In this document: piece after piece, positions 1 to 42,451 of the stretch
Layout of the letters: each line of letters opens with the position of its first letter
Numbering within the stretch: the first letter of the stretch is position 1
Assembly: GCA_040954595.2 (NCBI GenBank)
Contig: CM082593.2
Span: 2,453,830-2,517,829, forward strand
Direction: 5' to 3'
Length of the DNA: 64,000 bases
DNA from: Balanoglossus misakiensis
Lineage: Eukaryota > Animalia > Hemichordata
Notes under the pieces: generated by a model
The model's database searches: none
Told to the model about the DNA's origin: nothing
The model's input: only the letters and a program-made list of their open reading frames with translations
Position numbers and translations under genes: made by a program

Positions 1-501
1 TTCTGGTGGAATTTCACCGGTGAATTTGGCAATCTTCTGTAACTGGGGTCCAATCACCCAGACATAGTCAAAACCTCCTTCCAAGTCCAGTGCCTCGAAA
101 TGCAACTCAATATTCTGAGAAAATCAAAGCAAACGTCGTTGTTAGTGTTGGGAAGCTATTAAGCCTAATAGACACAATTTGGATGAGTACTGTGTCAAGT
201 GGCTGGGTAAGATCAAGGAACTGCATTGTAAAAATTACTTCCACTTCCTAATTCGAAATGACAACAAATTACTTGTATCGTGTATACTTTGCTAACGGAG
301 CAGTTTGACTAGCAATACAAGCGCGTGCGCACTAGAGACTTACTTTGCCGTTTTCGGAGGAAATGCTGAACTCGCAACGGGCGTTGTTTTCGTACAGAGC
401 GGTGCCATCATAGCCCAGAGACGTGATGGTTCCAGTATCGCCGGTCAAATCGTGAGGCGTACCACAGCCAGAATCGAAAGTTGGTTGTTCAGTTCCAGAT
501 T
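1..501 (-). other. CUB domain (partial)
   Basis: GCGTPHDLTGDTGTITSLGYDGTALYENNARCEFSI...NIELHFEALDLEGGFDYVWV...KFTG; CUB pattern across exons 501-344 and 114-1. Confidence 0.8.
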
Positions 502-3500
502 CTGCAGGTGAAATTGGGATAGAATGAGTGAACGATGAACTAATGAATTGGTAGATGTTATATTATGCCCTTTTGTGACAGCATTTCTTCGTGCAAGCCA
601 AACGGTACAGACACACAGGAAATCGTCAAACTCACCAGGTGCCATAACAGAGACTTCGCAAAGGGTGACGGGATTGCCACGGTCGGTTTGGAGGCTGACG
701 TAGCGACCAACGATTGGCTGGATGCAGTCGACGGTGGTGATTGTCATTTGCAGACTTCTGGCTGTCAACACCTCGCCACACTGATGGTGAATCTCGATGT
801 CGGATTCTGAACCGACTCTCACAACAGCGCCGACAAGACCGCCGCCTGTACAGGAGAGAGTGAAAGAATCAGTTAGTCATGAACTGTCATGCAATTGATA
901 TCTTATTGAAGTGATGAAGAGACAGTTTCTGACTGATGTGCCACTGTGGAGAAACTGTGGCCGTTCATTCTCTCAGCAACACAGAACTATTTACAGTTGT
1001 TGTCTTCAAAGAGCAGAATCGTTGCTTTAATTCATCCAACAGCTTTCCTACACCCAAATCCACCCCTCCCCGCTATAGTTACAAGCAAGACGACACCAAA
1101 CAGACACTTCTAAACTTGCGCTTACCTCTGTAATCGTGGCAGTCGGCACAGTCACAATGATCGGTGGTTTTACCGCACCAGGCGTATGGCGAGCAGCATG
1201 GGAATTCTCCGTTCGGGTTGCATTCACCAGGTGATCCGTCGGAGGCTGGGAAGTCTGGTCCACATCGCAGGTCTGACCTCCATTTCATGGCGTTTGCTGT
1301 GAAATTTAAAAAAAGAGACACTAACGTGAGTCATCAAACGTTGTAATTTTCAGTGACATCAACTCTCTGTTACAGTAATATAGTGGTAAACACCCGTGTC
1401 CTTAGTATACAAACCACACCCGAAAACACATTATATCTAGTCGTTGAAACATTTGTGTGCCCCCAAATCCGGGTAATGGAAATCAGTTCAACTCAACAGG
1501 TCATCACGAATCAATTTATACGATCAAATATCGATAAATGTTTCTCAAACAATGGTTACTACTTACCGTAGTCAGTACAGGTGCCACATGTACAATGGTC
1601 AGCAGTATTGCCACACCAACCGCCTGGTGAACAACATGGATAGATAGAACTGGGGTCACACTGGGCTGGACTTCCATCATCGAGTGGGTAGTCTGCTCCG
1701 CAACGTAAATCATTCCTCCATTTGTTTGCTACGAAGAAAAAAGTGAACATCTTTAGAAAACAATTCTCTTATCACAAACTAGTCCTTTCCCCTAATACGT
1801 ATATTTTAGACAGTATTGTAATATGCAACCGCCACTTTTTAAAGACAATTTAAATTGACTTACGTGGTCTTTTCAGAATGACTCTATGTACATTGTACGG
1901 TTTTCCAAGGTCAACCTTCCACCACGATTTGTCTTCAGCATCTATCAAGGCGCAAGTCTGGGGGTTGCCATCGCTACCATAGGGTGCGTTCGAACCGGAA
2001 CTGACGAAGGCAACTCCGGTTGGAGCAACATTTGTAAGGGTTGGTTCTGGGAATGGAGAGAAGTATTTTAATGAAATAACAATGTCATCAATATAAGTAG
2101 CATAAGAAAATGCCAACGCCTCTCTTAGAGTGCCCACTTTGTGATATTCACACAGTGTCCGTTATTGATATCTGAACTGCGTCCTTTGCGAAGACAAATT
2201 TATTTTAATTAAGTCGTAATAATCATTTTTTTGTCAGAACATTAATTCTCCACTCACCTTGTTCTCGGTACTTCTCGAAGAAATCATTTTCATTCCAATC
2301 GAAGTCTCCACATCCGGGGAACCCACCCGGGACGCTTGGCTGTTCGTTAGGTTTGACGTTGAGTAAGATGGCCATACCGCCGAGTAAATGATGCTCAATG
2401 TGACAATGCAAGAACCACCATCCTGTAATTGAAGAAGATATAATAAGCAAAGTTGTATCGCCAGCTTTGTGCACTCATTTTCAATGCTTAAAGACCACAT
2501 CAAAACAAGATCACAGTAATCCACGACGCCTTTCAGGAGTTTTGGCCGATAGACTTGCACACACCACGATGCTCATTCGAACGAATACAGTAGTTTTCAA
2601 ATCAGTTTTATAAAGGAAACCCTTTCAAGAGTATAAGTGAGTCATGATTACCTGGGTTGTCAGTCGTCAAGCGTGCAACGACGTAGCCACCAGAGGGCAG
2701 AAGAACAGTGTCTTTTCTTGGTGGATTGAAGAGGTTCTGGGGAATGGAGTCGGGATCCTCGTTCCAGGTGTCGTTCCTCCAGCGTGGTTTATTGCATGGA
2801 ATCAACATACTGTGAATGGAAATGAAGCCGTCAGTCGAAGAAGTGGAAAAAAGTTGGAAGGCGTTTATTTCTTTTCAATCACATGTTAACCAGTATTTTA
2901 AGATGGTGAAGTGTAATCAAGTAAAATATTTGACAGAAGATTACTATATAAGGACATTCTACCAGTATTGTAGAAAATATATATTACTTTATATTACATT
3001 ACCTGTCAAGAGAACAGCACTGTGTTTCATCGTCTGGGCATGGGCAACACAGGTCCTGGTTGGCTTGAACGTAGTGTCCGTTTTCGTCCTGTTCTGGGAA
3101 TCCCATCTTCGTCACCAGCAGACTGTGTCCATGGATGTGAATTGGGTGAAGAGAACCATTGTGGGAACCGCCAGAGCCGACACTGGTGAAGACGAACTGA
3201 TAGTGTTCTTCTTCCATGGTGATGAAGTTGGTGCACTTGCAAACAGTGTGGTGATCGGGGGCGTCGCATTCTTCGTCGCACTTCTCAAAAGCGGCGCTTG
3301 GGTCAAAGTCGTGGATGGACAGCTGTGTTGGTGAGACGAAGGCCTTGCCGTTGCAGACCGGGGCCGGTTTCTGGCCTGGGAGAGCCGTTCCGAGAGCCAT
3401 GCCGCCTTTACCTCCGAAGACGAAATTCATGAAGTACTGTGCCTCTTTGGTGACGTGGGCTGGAGTTGGATCCAAGGCCAGTTCTCTTGCAGAACGAGAG

Positions 3501-6050
3501 AGATCAGCTATGTGGATGCACTTGGTATTGGACCAAATTGGATAGCCCTCAAATGGACAATTGAGTGTGACGCACGGTGCGGTGTCCTTGTTACAGTGAC
3601 GCCAGACATCTGCTGGCAGATTGTCGGTGAGGAAGGTACCACTAGTGTCGCCATAGCGGAGAACAGCAGCGTTGGTATCGTTGAATGGACGGCGATTGAC
3701 TTCATCAAAACGCATGGTGTCGGCACGGACCACGTATTCTGTATGTTCAGGGTCGGACTTGGTAGAGAGAATGAAGTCGTATCTCTCACCTGCTGATACG
3801 ACGATCCAATCAACATCAACGGGATTAACATCGAAACCATCTGATGTGATCACCTTCAACTTGTGGTCGTCAACAGAGATACGGTACGAGAAGACCATCT
3901 GAGCGCCGACGACGCGGAAACGATATCTGTGGCCGGGCTTCACTGCAAAACCAAAGTAGGGCGTACGCTTCTGAGGATCGGTGAGGTCGTAGCGGCCACG
4001 GCCGTTGAATATACCGGACTTGTAGGGAATTGGACTGATTTCGAGACCATCGAAAGTACGTTCACCATGGAATCTGACGCCATCTTCAAACCAGCCACCG
4101 GCCTTGAAGAGTTTCTCGAACATGTGATGAGATTCTTCGTGTTGCCAGTCTGAAACCATCATGATGAACTGGTCAAATTCGGGAATGTGGCGCTCGTCAT
4201 CGAGAGCGAGAAGGTTGAAATCGTAGTAATGCTGGTTTGGTTCATCTTCTTCATAGATAACAATTGGTCCAGCCATACCTTCGCTGAATTGGACGCCGGT
4301 GTGAGAGTGATACCAGAAGGTACCTTTGGGAAATAACAATATATATTGCAGAAGTAAATATTTTGTGGAAATCAACAGCGATTACCATTTCTCTGACTCG
4401 GAATGTTATAAAACAAAAACTGCAAATGCGATAGTTCTGCGTAGGAAGCCTATTTGAGCAATGTTGTTGTTGTTGTTTTTCCATGGTGTCATGCGCACTA
4501 GCAAGTCAACTAAAATATTCCAATGAATGACGAAACTCGTCAAACCAAAGACAAAAGAACTCACCTGGAGGCATGGCAGCGAATGAATAGACAAATGTGC
4601 CACCTGGTGGAACTGGGCACTGTGAGATGTACGGCACTCCGTCCATCCAAGGAGTTCTCATCTGGTATATACCGTGCCAATGAATTGTAGTGGCATCCTG
4701 CATCATAGCATTGTGCATCGTGACGCGTACGATGCTTCCATACTTAACCTGTTGGCGAAAACATTAAATCAGTCGTTTATTGCAAAACTGTTCAATGTTT
4801 GTGTGTTACCGTCAGAGTTAGGCAAAAGGGTGTCAGAATAATCCGTGGATATTATTTGATTTCGAAATTTCCATTTGTAGCCTATATTTATTGCATGGGA
4901 ATCGTTCTGTATCAAAGTTAACTGAAATTTCAGCCATTTTGTCCGAATGCGGATGACGTCATGTTTTAATAGACAACTTACTCTGATAGCTGGTCCTGGT
5001 ATTCTTCCATTCACAGTGATGACACGACGCTGAACGCCATCACCGGACAGTTTGACGTCCTCTGCGAGAAAATGACAATTTATATATCTTATTTAGTGAT
5101 GTCGGATGTTTTGTTGATAAAAGTTAACACAGTCAGTTTGAGATGGTAAGCGTTGTGCCGAATTCTGGGGCTTATTATAATCTAAGCTTGCAGTGTAAAC
5201 TTGAAAACAGGAATAGCGCGTCCTTTCAGTAACATTCTGCATTTCTTGCACTCAGGAGATTAGAGGCATGCGCATTGTTGTGAAAAACATCTTGATTTTT
5301 CACTTACCAAATGAAATGGCTCGGTCAGTGCCTGCGCAGTCCGGGTCATCAATGTAACAGGCCACACACGTAACGGTGTTGCCGTCTGGATCTTCACAAT
5401 CGCTTACGACGGTGTTGCCGCTGTACGTCATGGTGTAGTCGTGTTCAATCTCGAAATCGTATCTACAAACTGGAGAAAACATCATATAAATCAATAATTA
5501 ATAAATTTGGTTAAAAACGAAGATCAGCGAACACAAAACGAAAAGTTTGCTGAGTCATTTGTTGAAGAAATAAAAGGAAAGAAACACTCCCCAAATAAGA
5601 ACACCTTATTGCCTACTTACCCACACGATAATCATCAAGTTCAGGGATGTATTCCTTTTCGCAGACTCCTTCATCTTGCAAAACAGCCTGTCAAATTTAG
5701 AAAACAAAATGCGCGCAGATGTAAATGTCATGTGACAAGATACCGTCTGTTCCAGTACAGGAATATTCCTAAGGGAGAGTTCTGCTAGCAGCAAATATCA
5801 GAATAAAGTAACATAAATACATCTTAACTGTATAGACGCAATTTCTGTTTGCATGGCTTTCGTTTAGGAATACGTATGTGTCGAAATTAGGTCCAAAAAG
5901 TTCCTAGTTTGCCTACTGAGCGCTGTTGGTTTCAGAGTTCTCGTGGTCTAACACTATCATCATCACGACACAGATATTTGCGCAAAAACAGTTTCTACAT
6001 ACCTTTGAAAGGGCAAACAGCCCGAGGAGGGCGAGAACCGGCAACTTCAT
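1..6050 (-). CDS. Secreted multicopper oxidase (laccase/ascorbate-oxidase-like) with C-terminal F-type-lectin-like, 2x hevein-like and CUB domains; 3' end lies beyond the window start
   Basis: Phase-compatible GT-AG exons: 6050-6003 (signal peptide MKLPVLALLGLFALSK), 5687-5621, 5469-5308, 5061-4982 (ITVNGRIPGPAIR), 4748-4565 (TIHWHG), 4323-3003 (GTFWYHSH...HPIHIHGH), 2809-2651 (NPPRKDTV...DNP), ~2423-2259 (GWWFLHCHIEHHLLGGM), 2046-1864, 1728-1567, 1296-1126, 845-636, 501-344, 114-<1. All four copper-binding signatures are intact, with Met as the T1 axial ligand. Confidence 0.95.
636..2046 (-). other. F-type lectin (fucolectin/FTP)-like domain split in two halves
   Basis: Exon 2046-1864: TNVAPTGVAFVSS...DGNPQTC...SWWKVDLGKPYNVHRVILKRP. 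Exon 845-636: LVGAVVRVG...QCG...DCIQPIVGRYVSLQ...TLCEVSV. Together they match the NVA/WWxVDL/GRYV/LCEV pattern of F-type lectin domains. Confidence 0.85.
1126..1728 (-). other. Two hevein-like (chitin-binding type 1-like) Cys-rich modules, one exon each
   Basis: KWRNDLRCG...QCDPSSIYPCCSPGGWCGNTADHCTCGTCTDY and KWRSDLRCG...ECNPNGEFPCCSPYAWCGKTTDHCDCADCHDY; both carry the CCSxxxWCG hevein motif. Confidence 0.85.
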
Positions 6051-10188: not shown

Positions 10189-13100
10189 ATGGCAACAAAG
10201 ATCTCAGCTCCTCCAAATGGAATTTACATCGTCCAGGGAGAAATGTCCTTGGTGGTGACAGCAATGAGAAGGAATTCAAGATGGAGTTCTCATAGTCCAC
10301 AGGTAAAGTGTGTCTGTCTGTTGTCTATACATGTATGTATAAATGTAATAGTATGTATGTACATGTATGTATCTATGTATGTATCAATATATGTGTGTGT
10401 AAGGTCGTGTATAGGTCATAATAATGGTCTATTAACACTATTCCCATCCACACACAAGGATTGTATTGTTTACCCCCATAGAAATATGCTGGGTCCAGTA
10501 CATTGCTGTGTTAAAGAGAACTGTCCACTATCTTCAATGTTTTGGAAAACAATACAATTTTAATTTAATTGTAATAATTGTTATGCAAATTAGCCAATAC
10601 TGCATCAACAAACCCTGGGAAGAGATGATCAGCAAATTATTCATAGATAATCATGGTTTCTTCATTTCTATTGCAGGATGAAGACCAAGATCCTCTTCTC
10701 GGGAGTTTTTCTCAACTAAAGGAAGTTATCAACAATATCTCAGGTAATTAAATCATTATGCTTCACACTTACTCACATTTACGGTTTTTAGGAGGATTAA
10801 AAAAGCGGTCTTTTCAATGAAAAAAAATAATGACGCACCCGGTTCAAGTATGAACTGCTCATTAATACTGCAACACCGAAGGAAAAATAAACAATGACCT
10901 TTAGATGGATTATTGGGCTCAGTGTTCAGATATTGTATACGTCGGCTGTGCCACACTTCATGTCCTTGCTCTGATGCGATCCTCAGGAACGGACAGACTA
11001 TTTTTACTCATCGATTAAAAACCCCATCTGTTGACTAGACGTGCATGTTTCAAGGTTTTGCAGAAATCCGAGGTTTGTAGAGCAGATTATGGTATTTTTA
11101 GATACACAGTTGTAGTAGGTGGTGTGCCCTGAACGCTATGATGCATCACCAACTCACTGTTGGCACAAGATAATTACTCCATTGCAATCATTTGACTTCA
11201 ATATGATAGTTGCACATCAGTAGATACATTTACTTTTTACTCGTACATGTACGCACATGAAGTGAACTCTAGACTTGTATAATGAGCAAACAAAGCAGTT
11301 CAACTGTCATCAGACTATGCATCATTTGTGAAGATGCTTTTTCACCTTTGGTATTCAGACATAACGTACTAAAGGGACATGACATGTACACAGTGGGCAT
11401 TTTCTTTGGACTGTCACTTCTTTCAAATATCAGATTCATGCATGAAACGTTTTGTTCAACACAAACAGTTCTATTGTGGTACGTTGTGCACACACGCTGT
11501 TGTGTAATCTTACATCGGAGTTTAATTTCCTGTACATGTCAAGATGTACAATGTCCTATCAATATCATTGAAAACAGGGTGGGGGCAATTTGTGGTAATA
11601 TACAGATGTTGGCGGAATATAAGTACATGTGTATACTGCCAAAGGTTTCTTCAGTAAACTAAAATTTTATAAACTGTTCTTTGCTGTTTGGTTTTGATGT
11701 CGTTTGAAAATGGTCTTTGAGGTCTTGATCATGAACATTTTAACTGGGATCTGGCCATGGCTTAAAAAATCCTCATTTTCAATAGGATAAGATTATCATA
11801 CAATTACATGTCCTCTAATATTGGATCCGGGAAATCAAATCCTGGGAATCAAAAAATAGTGACGGAGTGAGTTAGCAGAGATCTCATTGCGGAGTTTCCA
11901 AGTGTTCAGTCCCTCTCCCTCAAGATACTTGAACTAATTCAGTAATTTTGTTGAGTTGAGTGAAGCTCACTTAAGTATCTAATTATCAAAGGACTCTACT
12001 AAAATATTTCGCAGGCTGAATACTACTGTGGAATTAGATGAAGAGAATTGATCAATATTGACAGTATTTGAGATGCCAACATGTATAAAATGCCCCATAA
12101 ATTAGGGCAGAATAGAATTGCAGTGTTTGGCATTATGTAGCGCATTGTCGTAAAATCAGTACCCTGAAGGAAAGAAGAGACGTACAAGTACATTTTGTAG
12201 TCATTGAATATGCTGTGAAGGAGCTATTTGAGTGGAGTGATGTAGGCGGATGGTTGCCTAGCAGTGGTTGTCATGGCTGCAGAATCCGTGAAGTCAGAGA
12301 TATAAATAGAATCTGATGTGTGTGATGTCGGTATCTTTTCTTGCACATAACACAGAAGATAATTGATTAATATGGTGGACGTCTTCATATGATTATGAAT
12401 GTCATTGGCAAACAGTGTGTATTTGTAAAATGTCAGGAAGATAAAAATTTTGGTTTTGAAATTATTATGTGATTTTATAATAATGTCAAATGTGGAACAA
12501 CGGATCAATTTCATCAGTCCAGACCTTTTAAATCTTGAATGTATGCCTGTCTGATGGACATGTTTGCAGTGCATTACATTGATTAAGATGTAAATATATA
12601 TTTAAGTGTTGTATTCTTCCTTAACCCCATTTTCCTGTTCCCGTCTATTCCAGACTTGAATGAAGTGGAACCCAACGTATTCCTGACATCATTCCTTGAT
12701 GTGATCAGGTCGGAAGACACAACCGGACCAATAACAGGTCTTGGTCTGTCTTCAATCAACAAATTCCTCTCCTATGGGCTCATAGGTAATTAACTTAATT
12801 TGGTCCATACACTCTGTCTTAAAAGATGATAAAATAAATTATTCATAAAAGCATGTTGATGTTCCCATGATGGAATTTGTTTCACAGACATGCATTGAAA
12901 GGTTTTTGTCAGGTACATAACATATTCTAATGTTTCTTGATTTATTGTCTGCCAGTTTCTGTCAGAACAAAGAAAAACATTTCTATGACATCAAAAACCT
13001 CATGAATGAATTAATTTAGTGATAATAATAATGTTATGGAGGACTCACACTTTGCATAAAAATACACTCTTCCAGATATTTCCTGTGATGGCGCTGCGAC

Positions 13101-16100
13101 AGCGATAGAGAATATGGCTGATGCAGTGACACATGCAAGGTTTGTCGGAACTGATCCAGGCAGCGACGAAGTAGTTCTAATGAAAATATTACAGGTAATT
13201 ATCCAGCTGAACTTTGGTAAATACCTGTGTGGCAGACCGCTACCTTTTTCTTGTAGAAATTTTGAGTATTTTGTTTCATGCAGGAAATTACACGTGTTAT
13301 TCTGCTCAGTGAAACATGCTACATTGTCAGTTACTCTCTCTTCTCCACATATCCTGTATTTTCGTCGCTTATATTTCTGTTCCATATTTTTCCCGCAGGT
13401 TTTAAGGACATTGCTACTGACTCCAGTGGGCACGCTTTTAACCAACGAGTCTGTCTGTGAAATTATGCAGTCGTGTTTTAGGATATGTTTTGAAATGAGG
13501 CTCAGTGGTAAGTTGTATGTGATGTACATATTGTACAGTATATATTGCAATGCATGTAATGCACATAAACAAAGTAATGTATGCAGTCTAAAGATTGATG
13601 GCGCACTAGACCAAGCAGAATTGGTGCAAAGAAGATCATCATAGGAAATATCAGCAAATAAATTTTCTTGACAATTATTGAAGAATCTATGTAAATTATC
13701 TCTACCACAGAGCTGTTACGAAAGTCTGCTGAGCACACTCTAATGGACATGGTGCAAATGCTATTTTCAAGATTACCATATTTCAAGGAAGAAAAATTGT
13801 CCAGCATGCGAAAGGTGAGTTGTCCCCTGCAAGGATTATATGAATGCATGTTCCATTTACACTATCCAGTTTGATTGTATCACCCATGAAGGTGAAAGGG
13901 TGATTATAGCCAATATGAAATCAATTAACATTTTGTTTCATTGGCAGTTAGATATGAAGGTTCATATAACCAGGCATAACAGGGGATGTGTCTTCTATGT
14001 TTTTCAGCTGAAAATGAGAGCAGGTGGAATATCGGAGTCATCCAGGAGCAAAAAGCCAAAGAAATCTCCCAAAGTGCGGCAGAGGAAAGAACGACAAGCG
14101 ACCACTCCGGTTGAAGACAAGGACAAAGACATTACCACGTCGGTTACATACACGGCTGCAACGACCTCCACAGCGGGTACAACGACCACGGCCGCCACCA
14201 CCACCAACGCAGCCACCACTACGACTGCAGCACCCTCTGCGACACCAGCGACTTCTCCGGATGTTCCGCAGGATTCCAGCCTGGTCTCTCCCGTCGGCGA
14301 CAGCGGGGTGGAGATGAAAGAGGCGTCGCCAGAGTCGGAAAACAAGCCGGAGATTACGGTGACTGCGGTCGAGAACGAAGCGAAGTACGACAGTGAATTG
14401 AAACCACCGGAAGATCAACCAGAAATGAAGGTAGATTTTTGATTTCAGCATTCTGTATTCCCTGTTTCAAATTCAACCAATGAATGTGATTAACCTTCAG
14501 GATCTGTATATTCAAATCACCAGTTATTATTGCTATTTTGATATACTTATTTGTTTGTTTTGTTTGTTTACAGAAAGCTGGAAGTGAGTGTGATCTGGCC
14601 ACAGACTCAGAGAAGGCTGAGTCACTACCAGAGATAGCTGAAGATCTCGACTCTGTCACTGAGCAGTCTGACAGCGCATCTGTACAGGACTTGGAATACG
14701 TTAGCTCCAGAGGGGTACGATTTACACCTCAGCAAACAGCAAGAGATGGTAAGTGTTGGGGCAGGTTGTGTGTGATGTTTAGATCTATGAAATGTTGCAG
14801 TATATAGAAACATTAGAAAGTAAGCTGATAGGATTGCTGCACAAGTAGAATCTAACCATTGTGGTCTTTTCTCTATTCACCTGTCTAGGATCTGGGCCAC
14901 TGATTCCCCATGGTCTGCCCTGCGTGAGAGAACTTTTTAGGTTTCTTATATCTCTGATCAGCCCACATGACAGGTAAGAACATGCTATGCAAAATGTTGA
15001 TTATTGTGAACAGTGTTGACAGAAAGCACTCAGTTGCATACACCAGAAAATCTTAGAACTATAAGGGAAGAGTATTGTATTGAATGTCATTTTACAAATG
15101 TAACTGTTGTTTATGAGTGACATGTTTGTATTTTGTTTTTGTGGTTTCATAGGCACAACACAGATGTCATGATTCACATGGGGCTAAGCCTGCTGACGGT
15201 CGCTCTAGAAACTGGTGCTGACCACATCGGCTCCTACAATGCTCTCTTGAGTCTTGTCAAAGATGACATGTGCAAAAACTTGTTCTTTGTAAGTATCAAA
15301 GTCAAGATCAAGTGTGAAGTTAACACAGAGCTAACAATAGGTTGGCCTGCTAGTGCCGTTATTGTTTGTGCATTTGTCTATTATGACATTTAAAAATGAA
15401 TTTTACACAATCTTTTCATTTTTCAGTTACTCCAGTCTGAGAGGTTATCGTTATTTGCAGCTTCCCTGAGAGTCTGCTTCTTGTTGTTTGAATCGATGAG
15501 AGAACATTTAAAATTCCAATTAGAGATGTATTTACACCGACTGATGGACATCATTGTGTCCGAAACACCAAGGATACCGTATGAGCAGAGAGAGATGGCG
15601 TTAGAGTCTGTAGTACAGGTCTGTGTCTATGTAATGTCTTGATGGGTTCTTGATATCTTGGTGATGTTTGAGTTTTAGAACAAAATTGTCTCGTGTTAGA
15701 AACGGATATGTGTTGAGATTTATTGGTTTATATAGACTCCTTGAATGTATAAAAAGACTTCTCAAAAGACCTTATGAAATATCTGAATCCTTTTACTTTC
15801 AGCTGTGGAGGATCCCGTCCCTTGTCACTGAGTTGTACCTCAACTATGACTGCGATGTCTACTGCAGCAACCTGTTTGAAGATCTCACCAAGCTTCTCTC
15901 AAAGGTGTGTAAACATTCAACAGTGCTCATCCATAGCCTTTGCAAATTTTTGAAAATCCCCCCCCCCAAAAAAAAACAAAAAAAAAACAACCAAATTAAT
16001 GGAATTTCCCACTTCATTTTTGACAGAACGCATTTCCAGTCGCTGGCCTGTACACCACACACCTGTTGTCACTAGACGCACTGCTCACAGTGATTGACAG

Positions 16101-19100
16101 CATAGAAGCTCATTGCCACAGTCGGATGCTCAGCGCCACGGCAACGCAGCAACAACAACAAAGCGAGCAGGAAGAGGCGGAGGCTGCCGACAAGAAACCA
16201 GTCGAGGTCACCATACACGTTGAAGATATCCCTGAGGAGGAAGAAGAAGAAAACCAAGGTGAGTGTGACTATGGCAACATCAGACTGGCACGTATCACTG
16301 ATACAGCGTACATTATATAATCGATGAAATGTCATGTCTTTGCATGAAATTGGTTCTACTGTCCCAACACAGGCATGAAAGCTTATGCTGTCTGTGATTT
16401 TTACATGACATCATTCTTTAATCTGTCTCAACACAGGCAAGAGCCGGACTGTATCAACGACCTCAGCTGATGGTGAAGACTCTGGCACAGAGTGTGACAC
16501 TCAACACAGCACGGCGCCACACCCGGCAACCTCAGGGTATGCAATGGCACAGTACATAGCGATGCAGCGACAAGAATCCAAAGATGACAATGGTAAGACA
16601 CACTAAATGAGTTGGTCTCTCTTTTACCCTCTATGATACAATTATCTGTGAATAATGACTGACTTGTACCCTCCCTAGTACAATTATCTGTAAATAATGA
16701 CTGATTTGTAACCTCCCTAATACAATTATCTGTAAATAATGGCAGACTTGTACCCTCCCTAATACAATTATCTGTGAATAATGACTGACTTGTACCCTCC
16801 CTAATACAATTATCTGTAAATAATGACTGACTTGTACCCTCCCTAATACAATTATCTGTGAATAATGACTGACTTGTACCCTCCCTAATACAAATATCTG
16901 TAAATAATGTCTGACCTTTACCCTCTATTATATAATTATCTGTAAATAATGGCAGACTCACCCTTTATCATACAGGCAAGTCCAGTACTAGTGAAGTCCG
17001 ACGAGGCAGAGACAGGCGCTCCCAGTTTGCCAGCAACATACCCACGGCCGACGATCTGATCATGATCAAGCAGAAGAAGAAACTCCTTCTGGCCGGCTCT
17101 GAGCAGTTCAACCAGAAAGCCTCCAAGGGCATCGCGTTTCTCCAAGAACAGCACCTTCTTAAAGTGCCACTGGATCCAGTTGAGGTTAGCCACTTCCTCA
17201 GGGACAACCCCAAACTGGATAAGAAGGTCATGGGGGAATTTATATCCACCAAGAAAAACGCCAAGATTTTGGACGCTTTTGTGAAGTAAGTACATTGAAC
17301 TCATGTAAGTTTTAATTTTGGTAGCACTGAAAAAAACCTGTTATTGCTGTGGACTTCAATGATAAGATGTACAAAGTCAGTGAGACACTTTCAAATCATC
17401 ACACCCACTCAGAGTATTATGTTTTTATTTACTTATTTGTTTGTTTGTTTGTTTGTTTACTTAACCAGGTCATTTAGATTTGAAAGTACCAGGATAGACG
17501 AAGCCTTGAGAATGTACTTGGAGGCATTCCGATTGCCTGGAGAAGCTCCGGTCATCCAGCATTTACTTGAACATTTCTCTGATCAGTGGCACGTAAGTAA
17601 AACGTAAAATGGCCAGTGTTAAAAGATAGGGGGAAAGAGGCACTGAGAATCAAGTAGGGAGACCATTGGGAATATCTAAATAACTTACAGCAGAACCCAT
17701 GGATGTTTGGAAAAAGTGACCATTACCACAAAATGCACCACTACTGTCGTCACTCAACTGTAGGTTTTCAACCAGACCCTGTACTGCTTTCACTTTTCAG
17801 GCAGCAAATCACGAACCCTTCGCCAACACAGATGCAGCATTCACGCTGGCGTATGCTGTGATCATGTTGAATGTGGATCAGCACAACTACAATGCCAAGA
17901 AGCAGAACATCCCAATGACAGTCGAGGTAAGTCTGTGCTAGTGTTTACTAGTGAGTGCTAGTTCTCTATTATAGTTGCATAGTCAGCATGAGTAATAGCA
18001 GTAGCATGCGGTGCCCATCCTTGAACCTGGCAGTGAATTCCTTATCCAATCTTGTGTTTTATTTTTATACATCAGGAATTCAAGAAGAATCTGAAACATG
18101 TAAACGGTGGCCAGGACTTTGATTCGGATATGTTAGATGAAGTATACAATGCCATCAAGTAAGTAAAACTGTTTGCTGTTTGGAAACCCATGGAAAGTAA
18201 AGAAGTCAGTCAGTATTTGTCTGTGTTGTGCTGAGGTAGAAAAACAGTATTCACAATTGCCCAAAGACTTTGTACATAAACTGCAATTAATGCATGAATC
18301 ATCACATCACAGGTCTGAAGAAATCGTGATGCCTGCAGAGCAGACTGGACTTGTGAAGGAACTCTACCTGTGGAGGGTTCTACTCAAACGTGGATTTGGT
18401 CCCGGTGGTAAATTTATGCACATCCCCAGTGGCTGTTTTGACCAGGATCTGTTCATGCTGATCTGGGGACCGACTGTGGCTGCGATCTCCTATGTCTTTG
18501 ACAAGAGTTTGGATGAAACGATCATCCAGAAAGCTATCTCAGGATTCAGGTAAGTGATATTAATTCATACTGTTCATTGCTTCTCTTGTTGATCTATTCG
18601 TACTAAAGAAACGACACACAAACACAGTTTTTAATTATCAAACACGACATTCATGCAATTATCAATTTTTATCTTTGACAGGAAATGTGCAATGATATCA
18701 GCTCACTATGGATTGAGTGATGTCTTCGATAATCTGGTCATTTCACTCTGCAAGTTTACAACATTGCTTAATCCACCCGAGGTAGGTACATTTCAAACGT
18801 ATAAAATTGCTGTCTTTCAGTAAGTTTCAAGATTCTGAGATTTGGCATTCACCTATACATTGCCTGAGAAATTTCCTAAATTAAGCGATGGCCACCTACA
18901 GAAATGTTATTGTTGTCTATAACTGAATGTGTACACTTTGTTATTCTGCAGTCTGTTGAGCTGTTGCCAGTTGCGTTTGGTTCCAACGTGAAAGCTCAGC
19001 TGGCTGCCAAGACGGTCTTCGCCCTAGCACACCGGCACGCTGACATCTTACGAGAAGGTTGGAAGAACATCATGGACTGCATGCTTCAACTGTACAGAGC

Positions 19101-22100
19101 CAAGCTGCTTCCCAAGGTCATGGTCGAAGTGGAGGACTTTGTGGATCCCTCTGGAAAGATCTCACTCATCAGGGAAGAAATGCCCACCATGAAGTAAGAG
19201 AGTGAAGTGTTTATTATGAATTGTAATTTTTGTTGTAAAAGCATCATGCAGCATTAGTAGAAATCAACCATCACAGACTACATAGAGGTCACTCACTGTC
19301 TTTTATTTTTTCCCCCATCTAGTCGTACAGATTCCTCCATCTTCAGTTCATTTTATCAGTACATCACGCTGAACCCTGAACCAGCCAATCAGAGAGGACC
19401 AACCCCCGAAGACCAGGAGGCTATCCAGCAAGCACACGCCTGCATCAAAGTATGTTGTCTGTTTCCATGAGGGAACATAGATTTATATTTAGTTTAGTTT
19501 GAGTAACGACTGTACAATTAACCTGTGTGTGCATATCAACATGTTTTGAGATGTGATCCAACATGGCCAATTGTAGTATTGCATTACAAGTTCATTTGAA
19601 TTTTCTTTCAACAGGAGTGTCATCCAGAGCAACTTGTCACAGAAAGCAAATTCCTACGACTAGATTCCTTGCAAGAACTGATCAAGGCGCTGACCTTTGC
19701 GTCATCTGGCCCAGACACGGCCGTCTCCTTGGGGATAAATTACGACGAAGAAGCAGCTGTCTTTTATCTGGAATTGCTTATCAGGGTCATACTGCAAAAC
19801 AGGTAAGGATTTAATGCTAGTACACTTTAAAATCATTTGAAATATTCCTATATAACGGCTGAAATTTTGAGTACCACTTTGAGCAAAAAACCGTATAAGT
19901 ACTCTTCTGACATGAGTTCTGTCGCTTTCTGACTTCACAGAGACAGAGTGATTTCCGTGTGGCAAGGCATCCGAGATCACCTATACAATTTGATAGTCAA
20001 CGCCACTGAGTACAGCATGCTGATTGACAGAGCTGTGGTGGGAATTCTGCGCCTGGCTATTCGATTACTACGCAGGGAAGAAATGGCACCTCAGGTGAGT
20101 GTTCATCCACCAAGCCCCATGTTGATACGTGTACCATAAAGGGAGAAATATTCAAAACGAGAGAAGACAGGCTCTTTTATAGATCACAAATGGACCTCAT
20201 TAATACCATGAGAGTATAGTGCAATACTGTATGTACCCAACATTACAGAACATTCCTATACCTCATTTTATAGGTTCTGACTAGTTTGCGAGTGCTCTTG
20301 ATGATGAAGCCGAACGTTGTCCAGAAAGTATGCAGACAGGTTTCCTTCGGGATGCATGAGTTGCTACGCACCAACGCTGCCAACATCCATTCCACCAGCG
20401 ACTGGTTCACTATATTCACCATCATGAACTGCGTCGGGGCTGGCATGGCTGTGCCGCAGTTGGTCCACTACCATGTGGACATGGACACCGATGTTCCAAA
20501 TGTGGTGCTTGATAGTGGTAAGTCATCGTGTCACCAAAGGTCATGGGGCCAGTTTGCACAAAGCTGCTAAAATGCAGCATGCTGTTTACTTGAAAAGATT
20601 ATGCATGTATGATAGTACATTAGGAAACAAATGCATAGATATGTGCATGTTTTTATGTTTATTAAATCACACAGGATTTCTTATCAATAAAACTCTATGT
20701 CATCTACATTAAATTTTGTAACAGGTGCACAGTCTGACAGTGAAATCTCCACTGGTTCATATGGAACAGCCACCTCTGAGAGAGGATACACTTCTGATAG
20801 CGAGTTGTATGAAAGTCAGCAGAGAGTCGGGCGTTCATCAACTGACATAGATTTACATAGCTCTGCTAGTGGTACCACAGGAGAGTGGTTGCTGGTAAGT
20901 GTTAACACTGTTGCTGTTTCAAAGTTCTCCATGTATTTTAGTGCTTTTATAGTCTCGTTTACTGTAGTCCCAAACATGACACATCACACCTTGATGTCTG
21001 TTTTTCAGGTTGGAAAGGAAGGCGAGATCGAACAGCAGCGACAACACCACCATCATCACCATCACCACCACCACCATCACCACAAGAAAATCCACAACCA
21101 GTACGAGATAGCCATTGATGAGGAACTGCAGCAGCACGACACCAAGTCCTTAATGAAGTGCTGTGAATCGCTGGCATTCCTCGTCAGAGATGCAGCACAT
21201 GTGACTCCAGACAACTTTGAAAGCTGCGTCCATTGCATCAGGGTCTTTGTTGAGGCCAGTGTCAACGGAGGTGAGCCCTGTGCTTTAGATTTTTCATTTT
21301 GAAGAGATGCTGTCTATTTGATTTAAAGGTTGGGTTTCATAAAGTAATACTACAGACCATTTCATCATGAACTGTATTTCTTCTTTGCAGGGAGGTTGTC
21401 GGCGGAATACAAGAGGCACAGACATGCCAAGGAGAAAGAGAGAGACAAGAGTGGTAAACACAGAAAGAAAAGTGGTATGAAAAAATCCAAGACGTCTCCA
21501 TCACATCTATCAAGAGTTTCCAATGATTTTGACGACAATGAAAATGATGGACCTCCAGGAGGGTACCAGTCTCTGTCCATACAAGTAAGATACTTTTTTG
21601 TACAACAGGTGGTCAATGAATGTATATGTTAATTGCACAGGGACTGTAACAAAGTGGCCACTATATATAGGTTTGATGTACTAACCATCAAATACCTTCT
21701 TTGATCAGAGACATTAGAAGCATTTACTATCTATCAGTTGTAAAGCCTAGACTTGTCTGCCATCTTTCAGTTACTCGACTTGATGCACACGCTACACACC
21801 AGAGCTGCCACCATCTTCAGTTCATGGGCAGAGGAGCAGGAACGAGAAGGACTAGAAGACAGGAAAGTGGATGCTGGGGCCAGTGCCCTGTGGATTAAAT
21901 GTTGGTGTCCACTCTTGCAAGGTATGGCCCCTGCCCTTTCTAGTTTGTTCCTTTAGGGAGTTTTCACATGTCAGGATTCAATAGCCAGTCTACCATGCCA
22001 GCCACCCCTGTTTCCGGTTATGGGGGTCCAACTTTACCATAGAAAACTATGGATTTGGACTAAACCATGCCAGTGAGAGGGTTCATATCATCCCCTCTAT

Positions 22101-27940: not shown

Positions 27941-30900
27941 TCAATTCTTTTGAGTTTTGTGTATGCGGCTCGTGTTGGATTGTCCTGAAGACGGGGAGTC
28001 GTTGTTTGCACCATCCTTTCTGTATCTTTTAGCGTTCTCGTCTCTTGAATCCTGTGATCCACTGGTCCGCTTTCTGGTTTTTCTGAAGGTATAGTGTCCA
28101 CCATTCTGTCTTTGATACCTGCCAACGATACCATCAATCATACCGCTGGCTGTCTCCACATTACATTCTTTACCACTCACTCTAAAGTTGAATTCTCTAT
28201 CAGGAGGAATCTCGCCTGGATATGGAATACTTGGAATCGCGATATATGTGTTGGTAAGGTCCTGGATCCTTTGAATTGTCTTTCCACGGTGACCAATCAG
28301 AAGCCCAAACAAAAAATGTGGAACAGGGACACCCCTTGAAACTGACCGTTGAAGCCGCAGTGTAGAATACTGGTGTTCATCACATCCATTAAACATGTTT
28401 TCATTGAGGCTTCTTGTAGTTTTAGGGGATTTTCTCCTGAACTCTGTTTGTGACTTGCTGTCATGATCATACCTTTCGAAACAGCTGTCTGAACCACTTG
28501 ATTCTGTTGCAGTATACCTGGTAGATATCCCAAGTTTCCTTTCATCACGGAGACCATCTGCGCCCACATCCTGTACAACATGTTTGGTTTCTCTGATGTG
28601 ATCTTCCATTTCTCCCATGCCTGACGATCTGCGATCTCGCCAGTGTTCATCACTTGAGAAACTGTCAGTGTAGTCATACTGCTTGTTGTTGTCATCTAAA
28701 CGTCTCTCTGCAAGGACTGCTGTGGTTTCAACGTGATCATAAGGCAGAGGGGACATTTCCTCACTTCGTGAAGACTCACAGGATCCTTGATGTGTGAGGT
28801 ATGCAACACCCAATTCTCTCGCCTTGCCCATTTCCCTGACTTCGTCTTCACTTTGTAAATCACGCTCCCGAACACGATATCGACTATTCGGCTCTTCACA
28901 GCTTTCGTCACACCGGTCAGTCTCCCACCTTTCATCTGCTGATGAACTACTGGTGACGTTTCTCAGAATAACCACTCTTCGGCCACCATCCCCGTCCACT
29001 GTTGTGCGGACCTTCTCTCTGTACATCAAGTGTGGAGAGTGCAATGTCTGATGCACCGAATGTGGAGAGCGGACTGCTTTATACGTCACATGTGGAGAGT
29101 GCTTAGTATACTTGTAACCTGCATCTACATCTGGTTTTCGTAGGTTGTTGTAACTGTCGCCCCTCTCTTTGTTTTTGTATCCTGATAGCTTTGCTTTTTT
29201 CAGTTGACAGTACAGTTCCCAGACATCCTTTTGTTCTTGATTCATCTTCATCAACCACTTGAGTTTTCTTTTTCTTTTTAAGTGGGGATACAAGCTTCCC
29301 ATCCCATGATTATATTTTGGCATATCATCACAGTCATCACTTAAGTACTCTAAGGTGCTTGCAGTAGCAGCATCTATGAAGTTGCTCTTTTTCAACCGTA
29401 CTCCAGCAGGAGTTTGCTGTTTCTGATGCAGACTCTCTCCGCTAACACTGCCATCCACAAAGGATTCCAAGTAGTTGTGTGCAAACTCTTCCTCAGTGTG
29501 TCTTTGCTGCTTCACACCTGCCTTTGCTCTTCGAGGCGTACTGGGCAGACCATCTCTTCTTTTCTTTAAGGGGGACTTACTGGAAACCGAAGAACCTCCT
29601 GACGTAGAGACATTTTCGAGGAAAGGTATGGTTCTTGGTGGAGTCTTGCTCCATTGTTGGCAAACCTTCTCTAACCACTTGGCCTGGGCCCTGGCTTTGG
29701 CCTGCGCTTCATCATCAGCATCTGCATCAGCATCTTGAGGCTGTGGATGTGAAGGACTGGGGTCTTTGTCCACTGGCCTCGCCTTATCAGACACCGAGCC
29801 TGAATCGTGAGCTGTTTCCCCTTCAATGTTTACATCTTTAACCGGGTTGGAAGCATGAGCATCAGAGGGCATCGTGGTGTACATGTGATGCATGGTTGCT
29901 GGTTCATACGCTGAAGGTGGATAGTACTGCTGGGCAAACTGTTGCTCCATTTCTTGGTAATGGCTTGCATATGATGACATGTAAGTATAGTAATCTTCCC
30001 AGCTGAAACCGTAGGGATAATTCCATGGATTAGCTGCCCCGTGGGAACTTCCAGCATATGTAGGAATGGCGTTCATGTTTGGCATCGTGAAATTCACATC
30101 TGGGTAAGGCTGACCACTATACATGTGTTGCCATGTGCTAGACATTGCATTGTGGAGGGACATTTGTTCAACTGTATCTTGGAGGGTCGGTTCAGCAGAC
30201 AATGTTCCTGTGGAGTAGACAAACAAATATCAACTTATATTAAGTTCATTCATTGTTATATCTGTGATATACCCCTCAAAGTGACAAATCTCAACATGTT
30301 ATAGACATTTGACTACCATTCTCTTATATTTAAGTCATGCAAATTATATGTTGATGTATGACTGGTTTTCTTACCTCCACCTTCAACATGCTGAGCCATC
30401 TTCTGTACGAGATTCACCATTTCCTGCATGGTTCTTCCATACTGGACATTTGAAGTTGCCAAGTGGACATTGCTTTGTAGAACGTTAAGGAGATTGCTTA
30501 TCATTTCCTTTTCACCTTCTGCTGTTGGAGCTGTACTACAGTGACTGCCGCTAGTTGTCTCTGATGGCTGTACATTTACATGTACTGAAGCATGCTCGTC
30601 TCTCCTGTCAAAAGAATTCACCTTATTCCGATCTTCACTTCCAGGCATGCATGGGTCAAGTGTACCATGATATGAACTTCCAGAATCATTTCCCTCCATA
30701 GCTTGATCCTTTTGTACAGAACTACCGTGCTCACCATTTCTAGTCTTGTCCTGCATGTTTTGGCCACCAAAACTCCCATCCTCAGTGCAGGTTTTGAATG
30801 CGTCCTTACCAGAAGCTTCTGTGCTTTGTGGATGATAAGATGTTCCATCAGATGGAAAGTGCTGATTTGTCTGCATATCAACTTTGGACTTTCTGTTATC

Positions 30901-33900
30901 TAATTCTTCCTTAACACCCAAAGCACCATTTGAGTCTGGATTCAGTGTGTTCTTCAAATCCATTTCCTCACTGGAAGTTTTTTCTCCACTCCCCTTCTCT
31001 TCTTGGTCAGAAGTACTGGAAACTGATTTGTCATCTGTGTCAGTCTTCCATGGTATCGGTTGTACTAACAGACTTGGCTTTTCTTTGACTGGTCGGGAAG
31101 AGGAACTAAAGACTCCAGAGTCACCATTTTTATCTTTGTCAGACAGTGTGTGTTTTGCACAGACGTTTGTCGATTTCTGGACAACTGTGTGATCACTTGG
31201 AGGAGATGACTTAGGTGGCAGTGCTATTTGCTGGTCTTTGGGTTCCTTAACTTCCGCACTTTCTCCTCCAGGATTTCCTTTGATATGTTCGCTTTCATCA
31301 AAATAGCCAAACATACCATTACTCCCTTGACCATCAGCATTTTCATTTATGGCAGATGACATACTACTGGAGGAAACTGGTTTTGTAATTCCAATCTGAG
31401 ATATTGGAAATCTGGAAACACTTGCAATATCGGAAGTGTCAAATCCAGGTTTATTGATGCATGGACTGTGAACACTCTCCTGAGTGGGATGACTGCTTGC
31501 TACAGTGACAGCTGTGGCATTCGCATGTACTGTGCTTTCATCTTTGGTAAACTCGGCAAGGTGTTGAATTTGTTTGGTTGGCACAGGCGTACGCTGGGCA
31601 GCACACTCTTGAGATGGAAAACCATTTTCTTCTCTGTTCTCATATCTTTTACTCCTGGGATCCCTTGAGTCGACTTTAACTCTTTCAGCGTTATGAATGC
31701 TTACACTGTATTTCTGGGCCTTCTGTAAAGACGCAAGATCGAACTGGCTTCCTCTACATCCCCTCAACATTAATTTGCCTCTAGGATTCTTCTTTTGTTC
31801 TGGCGGAGCTGGCCCTCTGTCTACGACTTCCTGTTTTACTCCATCATGTTGAGCAGGTATGCCATTAATGCCACCAGTCGTATTGTTATTTCTATCGTCC
31901 ACTTTATCCACCTCTGTGAAGGAAGGGGTCCTCGACACTGTTTGTTTGCTACATTGACGACTCTTGTCTTGGGCACTACTTGTGTCCACGGTCTGGACAT
32001 ACCAGACAGGAATCTCCTTGGCATCTCCGACTAATGTATTCGAAATACGTCTCGAAGAGTCTCCATTGTTATGAGCATCTGTAGTTCCCTCAGCAGTACG
32101 TTCACTAGAGTAGGCCAGATTTTGAAGAGGATGGCCAATCATGTTGTTACAGTTTGAAGAACTTCCCAAGGACCCATCTGCACATTCCTTTGTCATTAAG
32201 GTATCACAACCACTATCCTTCGCCAACGTTGAAACTCTCTTCTCTATACGATTCCTACCATTAGCATGTTCATAGCCTAGTGGTTTTACCACATCTGGAA
32301 CAGCAGCAGTACTGTCATTTGATGCATCACTTGCTTCAGCAACATCAGTCGGTGGAGTAATGTCCACTTGAGATCCTCCACTTGGTCTCTGCTGGACTGG
32401 AAGAGTTGAGATTGGCAAAGTTATGAAAGTCTTCTCACTTCCCGATCCTGGTGATATGCTTAGGTCATTTAAGCTTGCAGTTGAGTTAGCAGAAGGCATG
32501 GAATCGGCAGTTAGTCCCCCATTCTTATGGCCACCATTCGCTACACACAATCTATTGTGGATATCAGTATATACAATGTTACGCCAGGTGGGAACTTCCG
32601 GTGTTCGTTGTACGTCACCACTGTTACAGACATTGCCAACGCTTTCACTACTACCAGGTTGCTGACTGCTTTGACTCTTCCCATCATTCTCCCCAACAGG
32701 AACGTTTTCAGCTGGTGAGCATTGCATTTGACTTGCACTTCTCATTTGTAAATCCTTCTCCTTTGCGGTATCCACTACACCAAAGCAATTATAACTTACT
32801 CCAGCAGAATTATCCCGAAGCACAGAGTCAAATTTTGGGAGTAAAACACTGCATTCTTTAAGCTGAAACTTTTTCTGTTGGGTTTTTGTGACATAAGGTG
32901 CATTAAACCTTGGACGTGGAAAGCTCAGGACACGTGACTTATCACTTTGATCACCCGGTTCATTTTTCTGTTCGTATTTGGAAGACTCGATGCTTGCACT
33001 GTATCTTTGATCCATTTTGTTCATCAAGTTAAGTTCTTTGTCATCTTCCTTTATTTTGTCGCAATGGACAGGATCACAATTACCTTGGCATGAAGAACCT
33101 TTTGTGTGATGTTCGTCAGGACATACCAGCAGTGGCTTTTTGTTGTGGGTACGCTTACTTTCAGTCACATCAAGTTTTCTTTTCATCGTTTCCACTTCAA
33201 ATGGCTTAGGAATCTGATTTGCTTCTTTGGCAGTTTTGTCTTCTCTGTGTCCAATAGAACCATCTAAAAATCAAAATGGTAATTATTTTCGCATTTTACC
33301 ATCATTAGATGTTCTCATTGCGATCAATACAAATTTACCTCACTTTATTTAATACACGCTTACCCGTTTTTGAAGGTTTCCGCTGCATAAGCCGTTTCTG
33401 GTGCGATGGCACGTGACTCACTTTACTTTTATCTCGTATGCGTAGAATTCCGTAAAGTGTTCCGGACTGTCTAGCAAGGTTGCCAAAACCTAGAAATAAA
33501 AGAGCCTTTCAATAAGTAAATATGATCAACGTGAATTATCATTGTTGTACATTAAAAATACTCGTATACTCGTGTAACGATCGTCTGGTCTTACCTAGCT
33601 CTTCGGTAAATTCGCAAGCTGGAAGGAGAAACATTTTGTTTTCCATTTTTGTCCTCTTGTTTGGTGTTTCATATATGGTGACAGCGGCCTGTGTAGAACA
33701 GGTACAATAAATAGTTAACTGTAGCTATTATTGCTCTAATGTCGTAAGTCCTAGTCCACGAAAGTTCAGTGTAAAGCCTTATTCGAACAAAGCATATAAA
33801 TGCGCATGTGCGTGTATATGTAACCAATCACGTTAATGAATAGTTCGAAATTTATCGTACCTTGTTACCTCGCTGAAGGTGACTAGCCAATGACTGGATA

Positions 33901-40223: not shown

Positions 40224-40996
40224 GTAAATGGAAATTTTACAATAGTCAACTGCCTGCAGCTTTAAATAACGAGTCACTGGTTCTGCACACACTACTAGCT
40301 GAATTGCTCGGTGGTAGGTTTTTGAGCAAGCCACTACAAACCGTTTGCGTAGTTCTACATAGTAGTGTAGTACAACTATACATATACGCACAGTAGGTTT
40401 GGTATTAAAGTACATTGGCTTTAGTACCTTAGTAGTAGCATGGAGCATGGCATGGAGGTACTAGTACCTCCATGGTAGTAGGATCATGTACATATGCGTT
40501 GCGAGCAGGGAGACTCAAGTAATTGTAAAAGGTTGATATTAAAACCCTTCGAAACGGAGGGGGACAGGACTGCAAGGTACAGATATGAAACCCGACCATG
40601 ACCAGCAGAGATAAAGCACCTGTAACCTTCTGACAAGTGCTTTTTCTCAGCTGGTCGGTTTTTCATATTTTTACCTCAAGTTAACCTATCTGTTTCATAT
40701 ATTGGGTTTACAACAATTTGAAAATAGAAGTAATAGAAGAATAGTACTAGTCGACCAGAATAGACTTACCGTTGCTTCCATGTACAAATGCTACTTTCCG
40801 TCGTCCAAGGACAGGAGGCTAATTTTTACTTCTGTATGGGTGATCTGTGCCTTATAAAATCCCGGAACAACCACAAAATAATCACTAGTGTTTTAGTGTT
40901 CACTGTCACGCAAGTGTTAAAGTACTGGCTTCAAAGTTTGTTCCATCTTTTGCTTCCGAAAGACGAAGACTACACAACACTGCTCCAACACGGACG

Positions 40997-42451
40997 ATGT
41001 CCCTCACATGCACATCTACAAGCACCTCTGGCAGCGCACCACCAGCTCGAACGAACCACGCGAGTGTTTGGTACGACAACAAGTTTGTGGTGTATGCAGG
41101 GAATGCAGACAGCAAGTACCAGTGCTTTGATGATTTATGGGTGCTGGATACAGCATCTATGACATGGTCTCAGCCCACTACCTCAGGATCATCCCCTGGC
41201 CCCAGATGCCATCACACAATGAGTCTGGTTGGCAGCAAAGCCTACGTCTTTGGAGGATGGACAAGTGAGTACGCGAGAATTCAACCGTTAATCTGACTTC
41301 TCATCCCCTCCTCTTCATACCTGAGCCTAAACTTATCAACGAGAACAATCGGCTTTAGACCAAACTATTAATGCGATAGGGTTGAACAAGGGGCTATTGT
41401 AGGCGGAGTCTGTATGATGATGCAGTAATCATCCGTTTGCTTTGTGTGGGTGGGGGAGCCCCCTTCCTGCCATTTAACCCTTTCGACACCAAAGTTGAAC
41501 CTTGTCTACCTTTATCTCTTGATCAAGAACTGTTGGCAGTAAAAAATTGTGACCACGCGGTCCAAAATAAAGTCGAATAAGTGAGAGAAAAATACACAAA
41601 ATTGAGAAAAAGTAGCACTAGCATTTGGCAGGGAAAATTGTCATCTTCAAAGGGTTAATCCAACCACGTATTATTGAAGGAAGATATAGGGAGTGTGATG
41701 AAGTTGGTCAGTTCCTTTGATGTCAAACTGTTTCATCTCTACACAAGGTAAACGACGATGCAACTTTCTTCATTCCCTGGATCTGGAAAGCTGGAAATGG
41801 GAAGACCTGACCCCAAAGATGTCGGCTGTTGATCCCCACTCTAGTCACGCAGCCACTGTGATAGATGCCAGTACAGTTCTTGTGTTAGGGAGAGGTGAAA
41901 CAGGCACCCACGCCAAATACGGCTGTAATGTTGATTTCCTGGATGTAAAGAGACTCCAGTGGACCACTTTTCCGGGAAGTACGATATCCCGCGCTGGGCA
42001 TTCCATCACCTTCCAGCCAGACGTTTCCATGAGGTACGCTGTGGCCTACGGGGGCAGACAGCGACACATGGTGGAACAGGTAGTCTGCAAAGCCAAGGGA
42101 GCACCCCCGAAAATCTTCCATTCGAAAATACCGGATGAGGTTCTGAAGTCGAGTAAGAAGGTCGAAGTGCCGCCTGGCCGGAGCTATCATTCCGCCACTG
42201 ACGTGAACGGACTTCTGCTCGTCTACGGAGGATTCATTGAAGGGAAGAGTGTGCGGGGTCTTGTGGATGGAGTCGATCAAGTCTTCCTCTTTGATGTGAA
42301 AAACAATCGTTGGTTGGCACCGGAGAAGAAAGGTGATTGGCCCCATAGGGCGGGACATACAGCAGCGCGAATTGGCGAGAGGAGTGTGCTGCTCTTTGGT
42401 GGTGAACACGCCAAGAAATTCTACAACGATGTTCATGTCATATCGTGGTGA
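40997..42451 (+). CDS. Kelch-domain beta-propeller protein, KLHDC9-like (~323 aa)
   Basis: Exons 40997-41264 and 41748-42451 (phase 1). Kelch repeats PPARTNHAS, PGPRCHHTM..VFGGW, PPGRSYHSA..YGG, HRAGHTA..LFGG. The segments GGWTSKRR, SSHAAT, LGR...KYG and TISRAGHS resemble KLHDC9. Confidence 0.85.
41474..41658. mobile_element. piggyBac-like MITE (~177 bp) with TTAA target-site duplication in the kelch gene intron
   Basis: TTAA|CCCTTT...AAAGGG|TTAA; a related end (ggtgctgaaagggTTAA) occurs near 57992-58007. Confidence 0.55.

Follow-up and report, generated by a model that had tools for sequence, protein, structure and literature searches.

Two hevein-like exons nested in the fucose loop of a split F-type lectin domain at the tail of an acorn worm multicopper oxidase gene

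We analyzed a stretch of 64,000 nucleotides from the acorn worm Balanoglossus misakiensis (GenBank assembly GCA_040954595.2, contig CM082593.2, positions 2,453,830 to 2,517,829 of the forward strand), hereafter the window. At its start lies a minus-strand gene of 14 exons, which begins with an ATG at 6050, exits the window at base 1 and encodes 1061 aa without a stop. Its 13 introns are all GT-AG, with lengths of 134 to 315 nt. In the order of transcription, the following parts were recognized:

6003..6050, minus strand: coding exon 1, likely a signal peptide (16 aa), with an ATG, a hydrophobic start and a GT donor; aligns positionally with the N-termini of Ptychodera flava paralogues
2258..5687, minus strand: multicopper oxidase in seven exons (5687-5621, 5469-5308, 5061-4982, 4748-4565, 4323-3003, 2809-2652 and 2422-2258); Pfam Cu-oxidase, Cu-oxidase_2 and Cu-oxidase_3, four copper motifs intact
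1864..2046, minus strand: F-type-lectin-like N-half, 183 nt, phase 1-1; PF22633 (F5_F8_type_C_2) at E 1.4e-7, above the cut-off, and alignment
1567..1728, minus strand: hevein-like module 1, 162 nt, 8 Cys, phase 1-1; match to 4z8i at E 7.8e-14
1126..1296, minus strand: hevein-like module 2, 171 nt, 8 Cys, phase 1-1; PF00187 at E 1.1e-4, family HMM 72 bits
636..845, minus strand: F-type-lectin-like C-half, 210 nt, phase 1-1; 49.8 bits on an independent F-type HMM, restart register as in 26 canonical genes
1..501, minus strand: CUB domain in exons 501-344 and 114-1, cut off by the window edge; PF00431 at E 0.004 and alignment to full-length paralogues annotated with PF00431

Elsewhere in the window, the plus strand carries exons at about 13060-21300 that we take to resemble the Arf exchange factor GBF1, and exons at 40889-42448 presumably with kelch-like repeats. 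A tandem repeat of about 42 nt, seen as a repeated 14-residue translation, occupies 16431-16964. On the minus strand, two long open frames of 762 and 985 aa (27944-30229 and 30316-33270) with a strong AT skew are likely large exons of one gene.

Three Cu-oxidase domains matched Pfam above the cut-off, the arrangement of a three-domain multicopper oxidase, and all four copper-ligand motifs (HWHG, WYHSH, HPIHIHG and HCHIEHH..GGM) are intact. The large oxidase exon is 76% identical to P. flava P0001 and P0002, and relatives of the oxidase go under the names laccase-like, ascorbate oxidase-like or ferroxidase in their source records. Because the N-terminus is the sole strongly hydrophobic segment in both the gene model and the full-length paralogues, the product is likely a secreted multicopper oxidase. 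The lectin and hevein unit is the tail of this oxidase and not a free lectin.

The four exons of the unit (2046-1864, 1728-1567, 1296-1126 and 845-636) had been picked out from the letters and open reading frames alone, and this sequence-only reading proved right to the base, with GT donors, AG acceptors and phase 1-1. It had taken the outer two exons as the halves of a single F-type domain. The N-half matched F-lectins of the PDB at E 0.002-0.003; the C-half (845-636) gave no Pfam match, and its only PDB sequence match was eel agglutinin 1k12 at E 1.1. On an independent F-type HMM built from 27 canonical domains outside the acorn worm oxidase family, the joined halves scored 78.5 bits as one stretch (positions 37-143 of 146), against 29.5 (N) and 49.8 (C) bits apart, which bears out the single domain; the uninterrupted paralogue P0003 scored 78.6. 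Once joined, the halves measure 128 aa, as in the six uninterrupted paralogues tested, and align to P0003 without gaps (84 of 128 residues identical).

An AlphaFold model of the 244-aa unit of the P. flava orthologue reached a pLDDT of 84 and a pTM of 0.67, from an input alignment that held uninterrupted domains and so favoured the F-type fold. Its best Foldseek match was again eel agglutinin 1k12 (E 1e-9). A wide structural search aligned it to 1k12 over 134 residues at 2.0 Å with a Z of 20.3, spanning model residues 1-244, and to MsaFBP32 (3CQO) with a Z of 19.3. Matches in the ESM Atlas were only to F-type clusters, below 0.9. A control fold from an alignment of the six nested sequences only had a pLDDT of 38, too low to inform; structure prediction with the inserts, a check proposed along with the sequence-only reading, gave one F-type fold in the first run only. 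The predicted fold of the P. flava orthologue is an F-type jelly-roll, and the two halves are predicted to close into one such barrel, from which the inserts would protrude as a loop where the sugar face used to be.

Fucose-binding F-type lectins carry the motif HX24RXDX4(R/K), as defined in the accessible text of PMC5712786. Alignment showed that both the His and the RxDCCxxR loop are missing from the gene, as had been noticed at the outset, and from 14/14 domains of the family, nested or plain. In the canonical set, the His is present in 22/27 and RxDCCxxR in 25/27. Of the cation motif h2DGx the gene keeps DG, preceded by G,S instead of small hydrophobic residues. By motif, the domain is not a fucose-binding F-type lectin.

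The middle exons had been called hevein-like, and we agree. Each module has eight Cys in register with 4z8i, the Cys pattern of the hevein-like BbtPGRP3 type, and Pfam Chitin_bind_1 matched modules 1 and 2 at E 4e-4 and 1e-4, both below the cut-off. The amphioxus BbtPGRP3 domain binds chitin via Ser51, Trp53, Trp55 and His62, and its presence increases the activity of the amidase on Staphylococcus aureus peptidoglycan about five-fold (PMC4610682, accessible text). At these four positions, module 2 has S, Y, W and H, and module 1 has S, G, W and H. The positions of Ser51, Trp55 and His62 are kept in all 14 nested modules. The Trp53 position holds G, S, Q or I besides Y, F and W among nested paralogues; in 189 other modules the residue there is non-aromatic in most cases, with top counts that include A 36, G 32, S 27, Y 25 and W 6. 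No second copy of the F-type or hevein module was found within the 64-kb window. In about 30 long proteins (among P0022-P0099, ENA records), tandem modules of the same hevein type are joined to a 7tm_1 GPCR domain, and LDLa repeats are often present as well; these proteins are possibly chitin-sensing receptors.

We scanned 317 proteins, 316 fetched plus the gene model, with the representative search covering the best 150 of 14,067 matches. Both domain types were present in 29 of them, side by side in 22 (amphioxus, Glandiceps and others) and nested in seven. Among the 317 scanned, all seven nested proteins belong to the acorn worm oxidase family: besides the gene model these are six records from P. 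flava, of which two are 99% alike. As the six share the nesting, the layout is not a chance one. They comprise XP_070544874 (P0168), XP_070544867 and XP_070545389-92, each combining the oxidase, the split F-type domain, the pair of hevein modules and the CUB domain in the same way; they exist as database records only, named 'uncharacterized', for which we found no paper. Among the matches listed, the closest proteins are those of P. flava, with P0168 83% identical over 557 aa. Identity to the orthologue is 45/54 and 46/57 in the inserts and 43/61 and 60/70 in the halves, so the inserts are as conserved as their flanks. Seven further P. flava records of the family, XP_070545387 and XP_070546847 among them, have an uninterrupted F-type domain. 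P0001, P0100 and P0101 were considered as isoforms, which was rejected because their sequences differ throughout; they are paralogues. The plain paralogues P0003, P0004, P0169 and P0176 share deletions in two oxidase loops, both of which the nested forms keep and the first of which is also kept by outgroups; the substrate pocket may differ between the nested and plain arms, to judge from these loops.

Where the modules entered the domain can be traced. Insertions and deletions in F-type lectins fall mostly in the CDRs, and the intron of MsaFBP32 is placed at the barrel bottom, not in CDR4 (PMC5712786, accessible text). Two Branchiostoma belcheri models (P0120 and P0043) break exactly after the Cys-Cys of the loop, suggesting an intron at the fucose loop. 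Both models fill this CDR4 intron with unrelated residues and are likely mis-predictions. We scanned metagenome contigs for a pattern of an N-half followed by a phase-1 donor, which gave 114 loci and 101 distinct matches; as the pattern demands the donor, the counts speak to the existence of the intron and not to its frequency. Of the 101 matches, 26 have an intron beyond which the C-half resumes in the register expected; in 7 the restart departs from this in a residue or in register, 34 continue intronless (median GC 0.58) and for 34 no C-half lies within reach. The C-half exon of the gene restarts in that same register, gapless to the conserved VRVG strand, and its N-half stops four codons before the canonical loop. 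None of the introns recovered by the scan contained a hevein module; the sole match (L086) precedes a continuous domain. Register and phase place the insertion at what is probably an old phase-1 intron of the fucose (CDR4) loop, one that canonical F-lectin genes also have. That the nested gene and 26 canonical metagenome F-lectin genes have this CDR4 phase-1 intron in common is newly found here. In the intronless genes among L001-L114, which were selected by the pattern, Gly/Ser-Glu codons at the intron position can read as a splice donor and are a possible proto-splice site.

Symmetric phase-1 exon shuffling is a textbook mechanism, and our preferred order of events is that an F-type domain that was already dead took up two symmetric exons in its old CDR4 phase-1 intron. 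We lean modestly towards this gain. The reverse order, in which the family began with the nested form, the hevein exons were lost in the plain paralogues and the dead fucose site is the scar of the insertion, is a serious contender that we place somewhat short of even. In its favour, the plain forms branch from within the nested ones in an oxidase tree with 11 outgroups (94/96, not starred) and carry derived oxidase deletions, and three loss scenarios all survived AU tests (p 0.44, 0.33 and 0.28). Against it, a lectin-domain tree made without the inserts and rooted on 15 canonical domains unites the nested forms in one clade (99/97, starred), as does, weakly, an oxidase tree with 3 outgroups (61/92). 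All outgroup branches in the family trees are long. The sequence-only reading had held that exon shuffling turned a fucolectin fold into a scaffold; of this, the nesting at the CDR4 loop and a non-fucose scaffold stand; the insertion as the cause of the motif loss is a possibility on which the trees disagree and the AU tests do not decide.

On our prediction, the F-type domain, lacking its fucose site, acts as a scaffold that carries the two hevein-like modules. These would bind GlcNAc polymers as in BbtPGRP3, and the oxidase could then oxidize phenolic substrates on the bound surface, in defence or in the cross-linking of mucus. By analogy with BbtPGRP3, we consider it fairly probable that hevein modules, displayed where a dead F-type domain once bound sugar, tether the secreted oxidase to chitin or peptidoglycan. 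The Gly of module 1 where BbtPGRP3 needs Trp53, and the scores of both modules under the Pfam cut-off, count against such tethering. Enteropneusts, the hosts of the family, are known for, and rich in, halogenated phenols, indoles and quinones (PMC6315191, accessible text), which are possible substrates of the oxidase. The modules might instead be structural or protein-binding spacers with little affinity for chitin, their nesting tolerated because nothing else required the loop once the domain was dead. We consider this unlikely: the variable residue at the Trp53 position, mostly non-aromatic in the 189 other modules, and the persistence of plain paralogues without modules would fit spacers, but the Ser51, Trp55 and His62 positions are kept in 14/14 nested modules, module 2 of the gene has all four positions, and conservation of the modules between the gene and its orthologue is about 80%.

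Ligand targeting could also be switched by splicing, as first proposed, with the hevein exons acting as cassettes that give forms with different targets. Part of that proposal stood, as skipping either or both exons keeps the frame and leaves no stop. The full skip yields 128 aa, the exact length of the natural plain paralogues, and would likely fold. The switch of ligand itself is not supported, on three counts. Splice sites flanking the inserts (donors 8/9, 8/9 and 7/9; acceptors with 13-14 of 17 pyrimidines) are as strong as those of the other introns of the gene (donors 7-9/9; acceptor pyrimidines 11-14). None of the six nested P. flava records, which are NCBI gene models, skips an exon. 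The skipped form would not restore fucose binding, because the fucose motif is missing from the uninterrupted paralogues too, leaving an on/off switch at most. We regard alternative use of these exons as quite improbable and infer, from conservation and the NCBI gene models, that they are constitutively included; on the best reading, the choice between a targeted and an untargeted enzyme would lie between paralogues and not in splicing. Contigs from two runs of a single sample continue across the exon-intron borders and contain no splice joints, which carries no information on splicing. That the exons come from another gene or are stray intronic copies is hardly credible, as they share strand, frame and phase with the oxidase gene and both occur, conserved in sequence, in six independent NCBI models of another species.

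The tethered oxidase, as we read it, belongs to a previously undescribed family with a likely carbohydrate-targeting tail, apparently restricted to acorn worms among the best 150 of 14,067 matches. No description of the oxidase protein or of the nesting was found in the literature searched, which covered main texts mostly from outside subscription journals, and the accessible part of PMC12221842 makes no mention of the insertion or of chitin. Annotation pipelines miss such split domains. Because a single gene family retains both the nested and the plain state, and the landing site can be identified, the effect of the inserts can be tested by comparing paralogues, and the CDR4 intron of F-type lectins is pointed to as a recurrent entry point for foreign modules. 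A bolder and rather doubtful extension is that this phase-1 intron is a reusable socket and the dead barrel a display stand for plugged-in binding modules, here hevein. The oxidase family would then split by gain or loss of the plug into an untargeted arm and a microbe-wall-targeted arm, the latter possibly acting on bacterial or fungal surfaces to convert the worm's own halophenols into reactive quinones.

Among known systems, the laccase-like oxidases of other invertebrates (Lingula laccase-5-like P0005, Owenia P0179 and Branchiostoma P0181) likewise have three cupredoxin domains and are 37-41% identical to the gene but, unlike it, had no F-type or hevein module detected. With the eel agglutinin AAA (1K12) and MsaFBP32 (3CQO), the gene has in common the predicted fold and four structural Cys, and its insertion lies in the CDR4 loop of Arg79/Asp81. 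Compared with both lectins, its domain lacks HX24RXDX4(R/K) and the vicinal Cys pair, and two N-terminal loops are shorter. BbtPGRP3 (PDB 4Z8I) has a module of the same hevein-like family, also fused to an enzyme, for which chitin binding and the gain in activity were demonstrated (PMC4610682, accessible text). It has one module set end-to-end on an amidase, whereas the acorn worm gene has two, nested inside another domain, on an oxidase. The gelatinases MMP-2/9 also target an enzyme through modules nested in a loop, in their case fibronectin type II modules, with domains unrelated to those described here and with the catalytic domain itself as the host.
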